Source: Ostreococcus lucimarinus (taxonomy: Eukaryota). Taken from it: a stretch of 64,000 bases of DNA. Where the stretch lies: NCBI GenBank assembly GCA_000092065.1, contig CP000595.1; one strand, written 5' to 3'. Of the stretch, positions 25,891 to 28,800 are shown piece after piece. The notes beneath the pieces were generated by a model, which did no database searches, had not been told where the DNA came from, and saw nothing but the letters and a program-made list of their open reading frames with translations. A program made the position numbers and the translations under genes. Position 1 is the first letter of the stretch. Each line of letters opens with the position of its first letter.

Positions 25891-28800
25891 TTATTCGCGC
25901 GCGGTCGAGGACGAAGCGCCGCCGAAGCCGAAAAATTTGCCCAGACGGGACGCCGAGGAGGCGGCTTCGGCGCGCTCGCGATCGGCTCGGCTGGGAGCGC
26001 GCGCGAACGCGCGAGGTCGGGCGACGCTTTCGTCGTCGACGACGGTCGTGGTGACCTTGCGGACTCGAGCGATGCGCTCGCGCTCGGGCTTTGGCGGCGG
26101 TGGCGAAGATGGGGTGAAAGCGCGTGGTTTGGCGATGGGCGCGTCGTCGTCGACGCGCCTCTTGGTCACCTTGCGAACGCGAGCGACGCGTTGGCGTTGC
26201 GCCTTCTCAATTTTGGGTTTGGTGAACGCCGGAGCGGACGGGTAGTCCTCATCGTCGATGTCATCGTCGAGTGCTTCGTCGGGGAAGCACTCGGCGCAGT
26301 AGACGTTGCCGTCTGGACCGGGCATGACGTCCTCCGGTTCCATCTCACGCGAGCAGTTCGGACACTCGAAGGGCGCCGGCGCCTTGGACGAAGCTTGTCT
26401 TGGCGCTTCGTCCATCTCAGGTTCTTCCTCGGGTACGCACCGCGGGCAGTAATCCTTCCCGCCTGGACCCGTGATGATATCGTTCAACGTACACGGTGCG
26501 TCGCAATTCGGACACGTGGGGATTGAGCGTTTTCGCTGTGGCGACCAACATTTCGGACAGAATTGCCCACCGTCGACCTTGATGACGTCTTCGGGCTCGC
26601 ACGGCGTCTCGCAGTTCGGGCACACGAACGGCTCCGGCGCGCAACGCGGGCAGTGTTTCTTGCCGTCGACGTCGCTGATCGCGACTTCTTCGGGCTCGCA
26701 CGGCGTCTCGCAGTTCGGGCACACGAACGGCTCCGGCGCGCAACGCGGGCAGTGTTTCTTGCCGTCGACGTCGCTGATCGCGACTTCTTCGGGCTCGCAC
26801 GGCGTCTCGCAGTTCGGGCACACGAACGGCTCCGGCGCGCAACGCGGGCAGTGTTTCTTGCCGTCGACGTCGCTGATCGCGACTTCTTCGGGCTCGCACG
26901 GCGTCTCGCAGTTCGGGCACACGAACGGCTCCGGCGCGCAACGCGGGCAGTGTTTCTTGCCGTCGACGTCGCTGATCGCGACTTCTTCGGGCTCGCACGG
27001 CGTCTCGCAGTTCGGGCACACGAACGGCTCCGGCGCGCAACGCGGGCAGTGTTTCTTGCCGTCGACGTCGCTGATCGCGACTTCTTCGGGCTCGCACGGC
27101 GTCTCGCAGTTCGGGCACACGAACGGCTCCGGCGCGCAACGCGGGCAGTGTTTCTTGCCGTCGACGTCGCTGATCGCGACTTCTTCGGGCTCGCACGGCG
27201 TCTCGCAGTTCGGGCACACGAACGGCTCCGGCGCGCAACGCGGGCAGTGTTTCTTGCCGTCGACGTCGCTGATCGCGACTTCTTCGGGCTCGCACGGCGT
27301 CTCGCAGTTCGGGCACACGAACGGCTCGTCTTCCGGTACATCCTCCCGCAAGCACTCGTTGCAATATTCCAAATCATCCGGACCGATGACGATTTTATTC
27401 GGCGGCTCTACGGTGATTCCGCAATTTGGACAGTTGACATCCTTTTTGCGAGGACAATTTGGCGCTTCATGATCCGTCATACCGCAGATGGAGCAGCGCG
27501 AATCCGGCATGACGAGGTTCTTGCGCGCCAACTCATCGCTCGGCTCTTCGAGCACCGCATGCACACTCGGCGACTCCGCGAGCGGTTTTCTCTCTTGTGC
27601 TTGTTTGAATTGTGCTTGAAGCGCTTCCGATGGCTTTACGGTTGGATTCGCGCGGAAGCAGAAATCGCCAAACGCGAGCATAAACTTCTTCGCGTCCAGC
27701 CGGCTCCCTTGGCAGCACAAGTACCCGTCAGGTTTTTCATCGATGGCGTGCACCCAGCCATGTCGAGCGCCGTGGTACACCCAATCAGGAGTCGACGTTG
27801 AGAAATCGCTGTAGGTTCGGAAGACCAATTCACCAAACTTGTTCAATGGACTCTCGGCACCGACGGCCCACATTGTTGCAGCCTTGAACTCCATCACTCC
27901 CATGCCATCCTTGTCGGTGAAAGCCTTGTACACAGTGCTCACAGCGCGGATGTCCTCGTCAGACGATTTGCCTTGCTTCTTCATAGCCGTCGCAAATCTC
28001 GCTTGTGCTTCGTATGCTTCGACGATATGATGCGCCTTAGGGCGAAGTATGCGTTCAATCAGCCAGCGCGTTGCGCGAGCGACGCCTCTATCTGTCAATG
28101 GCACGCGATGACCGTAGATGATCCAAGCCATGAAGACGAGGGAAGTGAGGAATTCATCCAGGTGCATTCCCCAAGCGTGCTTGATACGCAGCTCCAACCT
28201 CGGACCTTCGCTCGGACATAGCGATCCTTCAACTGAGCCAGTCTCTCGATCGAGTGTGAGACACTTGGCGAGAAGCTCGGGCGCCTTGACGGTATCGAAT
28301 ACCGATCGAACGACGGCTGAGAGCTGATTGTACTGCGAGTTCGGTAGTTTGTCCTCAATCTTGCAACTCGAGATGAGGTACATGAACTGACGGTAAGACA
28401 TGAGCAAGTGATCATCCGCACCGACGCGCGTTTCGTTGTCACTCGGACCAGACGGAATCGACGCGTATGTTTTGAACAAACCCTCCAAAAATGTCCAGTG
28501 ATTGCGAATCTCGCTCCAGACGTAATAGTTGCCATCTTCGGGCTCGAAAGAAGTCAGCACATGGTTCGGTTTGCTGATACCCTTGCGAGTAAGCGGAGCG
28601 GCATCTTGGATGAGCTCCTTACCATTGTTGCGGTAACGCAGAATCGTTCGTTCAAGAGGTTTTGAATTGCTGTCCGCAAGCATTCTGCGCAAGTCGAGCA
28701 CCGTCATTTCCGGATTTTCGTGAACAAGATTAGATTGGAGCACCGGTTGCGCCAACACTGGCCCTTCTTCAATATCCGGTCGAGCGTACATTCGTTCATC

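Follow-up and report, generated by a model that had tools for sequence, protein, structure and literature searches.

The stretch of DNA analysed here (the window: 64,000 nucleotides of Ostreococcus lucimarinus, contig CP000595.1 of GenBank assembly GCA_000092065.1) carries on its minus strand a single-exon gene for a giant multi-pass membrane protein of 3246 amino acids (aa), recognised from the list of open reading frames (ORFs), Pfam matches, hydropathy and full-length orthologues. The part of the gene that encodes the protein's tail contains a head-to-tail array of 99-bp units, each encoding one complete Cys4 mini-domain, and this array is a genuine minisatellite of the nuclear genome, coding and in frame. 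Its units form the bulk of a series of eleven Cys4 modules, the number of which differs between alleles and between Ostreococcus lineages.

The 99-bp array and the modules of the tail

The features of the gene and its tail, in the order of translation, are as follows.

25891-35631, minus strand: single-exon gene of the giant multi-pass membrane protein, 3246 aa
27454-27495, minus strand: CCHC zinc knuckle, C-x2-C-x4-H-x4-C, aa 2713-2726, kept in all orthologues
27349-27438, minus strand: module 1, aa 2732-2761, found at the same position in four of six species clusters
26588-27327, minus strand: coding minisatellite, exact period 99, 740 bp, 7.47 units, no substitutions (lag-99 scan)
26632-27324, minus strand: modules 2-8, seven identical 33-aa Cys4 modules, aa 2770-3000, net charge -4 each
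26545-26631, minus strand: module 9, CPKCW type, aa 3001-3029, the distal boundary of the array
26431-26520, minus strand: module 10, aa 3038-3067
26281-26373, minus strand: module 11, aa 3087-3117, the most conserved across species and the top Pfam LIM match of the window tail
26242-26280, minus strand: acidic linker of 13 aa after the modules
25894-26226, minus strand: basic C-terminal 111 aa, net charge +15, pI 11.6
26116-26196 and 26005-26082, minus strand: two copies of the C-terminal motif R-x-R-[VI]-ARVRKVT...DD..[IV]A[KR]PRAF

In the lag-99 scan, the identity of each base with the base 99 positions further on (w[i]==w[i+99]) is unbroken for i = 26588 to 27228, a succession of 641 matches that excludes a chance origin, and Tandem Repeats Finder (TRF) calls the array at 26584-27327 with period 99, 7.5 copies and a score of 1481. 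The tract has the usual attributes of a minisatellite or variable-number tandem repeat (VNTR): head-to-tail units within the range of about 10-100 bp at high identity (here 99 bp, 7.47 copies, 100% identity); a unit length that is a multiple of three (99 bp, 33 codons) within an ORF whose expression is suggested by a transcript-derived orthologue; and a difference in copy number between alleles (seven units in the window, eight and none in two other contigs, L002 and L016). All units are read in frame within the one 3246-aa ORF, and the remaining long ORFs over the array on either strand (26417-27364, 26484-27377, 26471-27472 and 26563-27801) were rejected as stop-free by-products of the periodicity. 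Module 9 begins with 44 nt of the core unit and diverges afterwards, which explains the additional 0.47 unit; the orthologues P0002 and P0003 show the same arrangement at module 9.

These results largely bear out the original prediction, which had been made from the letters of the sequence and had described eleven zinc-ribbon modules at 26285-27438, seven of them as identical DNA repeats. The exact 99-bp period without substitutions holds in both the lag-99 scan and the TRF call, and the translation contains, as described, two CPxC knuckles 19 residues apart in every unit. As for the predicted limits of the array (26589-27327), the end is correct and the start is displaced by one base (26588), while the count of eleven Cys4 modules and a CCHC knuckle stands with the correction that the knuckle lies just beyond the range given. 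The spacing of this knuckle is that of the retroviral type, and the UniRef entry of the O. mediterraneus orthologue is named 'CCHC-type domain-containing protein'; Pfam returned no zf-CCHC match on the whole protein or on the tail.

Unit number within and between species

An independent 453-kb JGI contig (L002; 3300046167, Ga0494228_00130) carries eight units, identical in DNA to each other and to the unit of the window. A scan of JGI metagenome contigs with a 41-mer of the unit returned eight contigs. Four of these span the array, one with 1 unit, one with 2 and two with 3, and the other four end inside it; contig ends within an array are the usual sign of an unresolved tandem repeat. Furthermore, the full-length proteins read from the closest homologue's 90% cluster have one unit (3048 aa), with a single exception that has none (3015 aa), and two N-terminally truncated gene calls have two and eight units; seven of the eight contigs read for the one-unit form originate from MEGAHIT assembly at k141.

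The weight of these counts depends on what short-read assembly can recover from a perfect repeat, which was examined by deleting units from the window allele and comparing the k-mers (k = 99-141) with those of the seven-unit allele. Deletion of one to six units produced no k-mer (k up to and including 141) that is absent from the seven-unit allele, so that alleles of one to seven units are inseparable at k 99-141 and the shortest de Bruijn path through them has a single unit. The common one-unit form is therefore best read as a collapse and not as a measured allele, and contigs with one to three units are uninformative on allele size. Deletion of all seven units creates 93 novel 141-mers at the junction, and this junction is present in the k141 contig L016; because a zero-unit junction requires novel k-mers, L016 probably reflects real reads and the zero-unit allele is probably real. 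It is firm that at least the unit numbers 0, 7 and 8 occur, that a multi-unit array exists and that short-read assemblies understate its size. The alleles also differ just upstream of the array, at aa 2767 (window approximately 27331-27333, minus strand), where the window allele reads REDVPEDE, the zero-unit allele PEDEPEDE and every other O. lucimarinus-type allele REDEPEDE.

Beyond O. lucimarinus, a search of 5.8 billion proteins recovered six full-length clusters at 60-97% identity to the giant protein, and a profile of its cytosolic domain (840 positions) run against 1.84 billion representatives gave 23 matches, one full-length and the rest fragments. The tail used as a query against the 5.8 billion proteins found nothing beyond fragments of the same Ostreococcus family, the zinc modules were not found in the recovered parts of the more distant fragments P0263, P0268, P0276 and P0277, and a literature search (Ostreococcus, tandem repeat, zinc finger) yielded nothing on the giant gene. 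By these sequence searches, the family appears essentially restricted to Ostreococcus and close relatives. Representatives of the orthologue clusters carry 3-10 Cys4 modules, with three in O. mediterraneus, whose orthologue, tail included, is the transcript-derived UniRef entry.

Three of the five other species clusters have near-identical duplicated units of their own (29-30 aa; 94-100% identical in DNA), and in P0002 and P0003 the duplicates sit as they do in the window, just upstream of the CPKCW-type module. The units of the P0003 cluster, 29 aa long and of the same type as in P0002, read PFACPNCAEPC.P.DIIEKNGKEYCPECV, and protein lengths in this cluster change in one-unit steps (2908, 2937 and 2966 aa; separately, 3001 and 3030 aa); the P0004 cluster has 30-aa units, PKCPNCSVFCNPGDIVLAPNGKEYCAECV, and proteins of 2933 to 3131 aa. 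Two duplicate pairs differ at synonymous sites alone (30/30 aa identical with 86/90 nt, and 29/29 aa with 85/87 nt), which offers weak but direct evidence, in a small sample, that purifying selection may act on the duplicated modules. Altogether, these data show or strongly support that the array grows and shrinks in whole units and that similar duplications arose separately in three of the five other clusters; the pattern is one of concerted, lineage-specific expansion of whole modules, within which the array of O. lucimarinus represents the youngest instance or the one homogenised last.

The prediction had anticipated much of this. Its proposal of a very recent expansion or continuing gene conversion agrees with units that are identical within the window, within L002 and between the two, and with sister species that have near-identical units of their own; its expectation that copy number would be polymorphic and collapsed in short-read assemblies was met by the seven units of the window, the eight of L002, the JGI contigs that span the array or end in it, and the k-mer comparison. 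The outcomes that it had named as fatal to the claim, namely a single-copy or artefactual array and a loss of the Cys4 modules in orthologues, did not materialise, since an independent long contig has the array and the orthologues keep the Cys4 pattern. Among the sister species, one protein of the P0002 cluster (P0227, 3290 aa, on a 1.24-Mb contig) has a tail that runs out of frame after the second 29-aa unit and is Arg/Ser/Thr-rich from there on, probably through a frameshift or an assembly error in the repeat region.

Identity and possible role of the modules

When 27 distinct modules, taken from the window and from five orthologue clusters, are aligned, C4, P5, C7, C27 and C30 are invariant and N6 is nearly so; all 27 possess the two CPxC knuckles that would supply the four ligands of a zinc ribbon. 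The AlphaFold model of one unit, built from the module alignment, is a predicted, metal-free structure of two beta-hairpins and a short helical turn (pLDDT 88.5; DSSP -EE------EE-HHH-EE------EE-) in which the knuckles fall at beta-hairpin turns, as they do in zinc ribbons; for three units the fold is repeated three times (pLDDT 80.6), with a pTM of 0.44 that makes the orientation between modules uncertain. The top PDB profile match is 2o13_A, the Cys4 second finger of the LIM protein MLP (E=1.6e-6, best stretch i-E 0.0016, whole module aligned), followed by 1ctl_A, again with the whole module aligned, and 2cu8_A. The zinc ribbons of the original prediction are thus supported as predicted zinc-binding modules by the invariant Cys and Pro residues, the modelled hairpins and a LIM finger as best PDB profile match.

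At the level of Pfam, the LIM family (PF00412; gathering threshold 22.9 bits) scores 22.0 bits on the window tail and DZR 17.9, so that no domain lies above threshold over the modules, and a triple core unit gives no LIM match. Seven of ten three-module segments from orthologues do match Pfam LIM (best E=8.3e-8), and the precomputed annotation of two orthologue tail fragments, P0257 and P0259, includes PF00412. Fold searches gave no significant match, though LIM structures were frequent among the top Foldseek rows. The paired fingers of a LIM domain (tested as C-x2-C-x16-23-H/C-x2-C-x2-C-x2-C-x16-21-C-x2-C/H/D), which are separated by a two-residue spacer, are absent here: the core units are spaced by 6 residues, the modules of P0003 by 4 and those of P0004 by 3, and module numbers are odd as well as even. 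Since the two-finger unit with its two-residue spacer is lacking, the modules, as far as their sequences and predicted fold go, are LIM-finger-like zinc ribbons and not LIM domains. What they have in common with the C-terminal Cys4 finger of CRP/MLP is the pattern F-x-C-x2-C-x17-19-(D/N)G-x2-YC-x2-C and, by analogy only, the role of a cytosolic protein-binding zinc module, often on adhesion machinery. They differ from LIM domains, which are obligate pairs with a first finger that is usually CCHC, in being single Cys4 fingers in series, with spacers of 3-6 residues or longer and no finger of the first type. To our knowledge, such a chain of single LIM-like fingers has not been described for LIM proteins.

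Other small zinc modules were considered and rejected. The RanBP2/NZF type (W-x-C-x2-C-x3-N-x6-C-x2-C) has a 10-residue loop, as against loops of 17-19 residues without a conserved W or N in the modules; the tandem RanBP2/NZF arrays of Nup358 and Nup153 resemble the tail in placing several small Cys4 ribbons in a row, where they bind multivalently, and differ in these same respects. RING and PHD cross-braces are ruled out by ligand spacing.

The membrane context bears on what such a chain might do. By Pfam, the ectodomains are Cys-rich/EGF-like, cadherin-like (Big_9, Cadherin_4) and ephrin-receptor-like; by hydropathy, two isolated transmembrane (TM) helices on either side of a ubiquitin-like segment precede a block of 8-9 TM helices, and a cytosolic region of about 890 aa, in which Pfam and a PDB sequence search recognised no domain, separates this block from the zinc-finger tail. 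The TM block likewise gave no significant match among PDB sequences. A stretch rich in Lys and Arg (KR-rich) follows the last TM helix, and past aa 1400 there is a single N-glycosylation sequon, in the last ~250 residues. Together with the CCHC/CPxC zinc motifs and the ubiquitin-like TM1-TM2 loop, these features suggest that the tail is cytosolic; the earlier description of a cytosolic tail on a surface receptor is consistent with the KR-rich segment, the sequons and the ubiquitin-like loop, and keeps the standing of a placement by inference. An extracellular reading, with the cysteines as disulfide repeats, was rejected because of the CCHC knuckle, the distribution of sequons and the positive-inside rule.

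We consider it probable that, through the coding minisatellite, a protein-binding array in the cytosol comes with different numbers of docking modules. In this proposal, unequal recombination, replication slippage or gene conversion between adjacent units would change the unit number, and the modules in the cytosolic tail of this cadherin-like, EGF-like giant protein would form a strongly acidic zinc-finger chain that may act as a multivalent platform for protein docking. Binding strength or stoichiometry for a cytosolic partner would then scale with unit number, and candidates for this partner are an element of the cytoskeleton or a basic binding partner, among the latter the basic C-terminal repeats of the giant protein itself. 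The scaffolding or avidity role that the original prediction had suggested is plausible. Net charge lies between 0 and -9 in all 27 distinct modules and amounts to -28 over the seven-unit block; a polyanionic chain of this kind lends itself well to protein docking and poorly to nucleic-acid binding. A precedent for copy-number-dependent valency is provided by the additive behaviour of LIM copies, in that a LIM domain that does not bind strained actin as one copy acquires this binding when three copies are connected by short linkers (bioRxiv 10.1101/2020.03.06.980649). The tandem LIM domains of zyxin, paxillin and FHL, which bind strained actin, are similar in their serial zinc modules, short linkers and additive contribution, and differ in being full two-finger LIM domains with 7-8-residue linkers and a known binding to actin.

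Several points weigh against this proposal. The O. lucimarinus core unit itself falls below the Pfam LIM threshold, the docking function is argued by analogy, and the TM count, ambiguous between 8 and 9, leaves the membrane side of the tail a matter of inference. Additionally, a single assembly stands behind each of the counts of seven (in strain CCE9901) and eight, and a spread from 0 to 8 units in one species suggests weak constraint on unit number, which also fits a near-neutral repeat. This last is the main rival account: a nearly neutral coding VNTR, generated incidentally by slippage or unequal exchange in a tail that tolerates such changes, in which the unit number is inconsequential and only the flanking modules 1, 9, 10 and 11 matter. 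The occurrence of 0 to 8 copies within one species, the sufficiency of three modules in O. mediterraneus and a perfect unit identity that makes the O. lucimarinus expansion too young to carry a trace of selection all speak for it, but it sits less well with a unit that is exactly one structural module and always in frame, with expansions that recur in three of the five other clusters (two at the tail position of the window), and with older duplicates that, in two cases from a small sample, differ at synonymous sites alone. Weighing both sides, we regard it as rather unlikely.

Nucleic-acid binding and a pure assembly artefact are weighted lower. A tail whose CCHC knuckle and zinc ribbons bind RNA or DNA at the membrane, in the manner of retroviral-type knuckles and RanBP2-type fingers, could appeal to the canonical knuckle ahead of the modules, to weak, knuckle-only matches to archaeal zinc-ribbon RNA-binding proteins and to the very basic C-terminal 111 aa; yet the archaeal matches extend over just 9 residues, all in the first knuckle, the protein-binding LIM fingers give the best matches at full length, and every module is acidic or neutral. 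Binding of nucleic acid by the zinc-finger chain is therefore unlikely, the nucleic-acid option that the original prediction had left beside protein binding is disfavoured for the modules, and a nucleic-acid-binding tail as a whole seems highly improbable. Least probable of all is that the seven-unit array was mis-assembled and that the true locus has one unit or some other number. Most public contigs do show a single unit, and a perfect 740-bp array is about as long as one Sanger read, which leaves the exact count insecure in a Sanger-era assembly, as the genome described by Palenik and colleagues in 2007 reportedly is. Against this stand the eight identical units of the independent 453-kb contig, the further contigs that span two or three units or end within the array (four of them), and the finding that, at k=141, any longer allele has exactly the one-unit form as its shortest de Bruijn path. 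Taken together, the eight-unit contig, the other contigs and the k-mer comparison indicate that the multi-unit array is real, with the precise figure of seven taken from one assembly.

Returning to the docking proposal, other repeat systems help to delimit it. PRDM9-type minisatellites are alike in that one repeat unit equals one zinc finger (84 bp in PRDM9, 99 bp here); the PRDM9 array evolves by unequal exchange and gene conversion, and its finger number varies between alleles and turns over between species. The PRDM9 fingers are nuclear, DNA-binding C2H2 fingers with varied contact residues, whereas the ribbons here are of Cys4 type, acidic and identical to one another, and belong to a membrane protein's tail. 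The VNTRs of yeast FLO adhesins and mucins likewise alter protein length between strains through an in-frame minisatellite and collapse in short-read data, but their repeats are extracellular, Ser/Thr-rich and unstructured, whereas those of the giant protein are predicted to be folded, cytosolic and metal-binding. A bolder version of the proposal, which we hold to be improbable as a whole, would treat the array as a valency element that can be tuned genetically: single LIM-like fingers would form a cytosolic chain whose length is repeatedly reset by recombination in each Ostreococcus lineage, whose unit number sets the strength with which a giant adhesion-type protein is coupled to a cytoskeletal or signalling partner, and whose variable alleles are kept by selection in natural populations.

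Coding minisatellites that vary zinc-finger number, as in PRDM9, and the collapse of such repeats in assemblies are already known. Three things are new: LIM-like Cys4 fingers that occur singly, one after another; their presence in the probably cytosolic tail of a giant membrane protein restricted to Ostreococcus; and their recurrent expansion in three of five sister-species clusters, in two of them at the O. lucimarinus position. The locus is a ready-made VNTR marker for typing O. lucimarinus strains, and it documents that metagenome assemblers can remove about 200 residues from a protein without any sign of it; most public versions of the giant protein (3048 aa) are probably collapsed. A giant membrane protein confined to one lineage, in an alga that ranks among the smallest free-living eukaryotes, ends in a chain of single LIM-like fingers that varies in length within and between species; if unit number does affect binding, the locus would offer a simple natural system for the evolution of valency in a folded, metal-binding repeat.

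Further features of the protein and its surroundings

The basic C-terminal repeats vary as well: two proteins of the P0004 cluster, P0241 and P0236 (2933 and 2970 aa), differ by exactly one 37-aa unit. In the TM1-TM2 loop, the ubiquitin-like segment (window 33943-34227, minus strand; aa 469-563; phmmer E ~0.003) ends in HVHLKLRG, the ubiquitin counterpart being LHLVLRLRGG; a surface protein does not usually have a ubiquitin-like domain set between its TM helices.

The setting is a green-lineage nuclear genome with intron-free genes, as seen in neighbouring ORFs for Vps41, a retinoblastoma homologue, acetolactate synthase, SNAPc3, OGG1 and alpha-glucan water dikinase; the acetolactate synthase ORF matches XP_001421626.1 of O. 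lucimarinus CCE9901 at 100% identity along 610 aa, which assigns the window to the genome of this strain. Head-to-head with the giant gene lies a 7684-aa ORF (window 35688-58742, plus strand), the orthologues of which measure 7625-7709 aa and match Big_9, Kringle, Ion_trans and EGF_TEN. This gene pair is syntenic in every Ostreococcus contig examined, and synteny is kept for the giant gene, the head-to-head gene (~7,650 aa) and a downstream gene (~710 aa). In the window the latter is a 721-aa ORF (23411-25576, minus strand), syntenic in orthologous contigs, where it has no Pfam match on record.

GC content over window positions 28000-34000, in the middle of the giant gene, drops to 0.52-0.54, compared with a window-wide value of 0.59 and with 0.62-0.68 for the genes on either side. 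Between the window and L002 the giant gene is at least 99.7% identical, except for one sharply bounded block of about 1.5 kb in the multi-TM block (window 29746-31245, minus strand; aa ~1463-1962), which has 229 nucleotide differences (~15%). The codons that differ over the 6-kb stretch compared (128 synonymous and 70 nonsynonymous) fall nearly all within this divergent block, which could be a mosaic or introgressed allele or could mark L002 as a chimeric metagenome contig. Two minor repeats complete the region: a (CCG)12 run within the 721-aa ORF (window 25207-25243) and an intergenic 28-bp repeat of 2.4 copies (window 25620-25684), just upstream of the start codon of that ORF.

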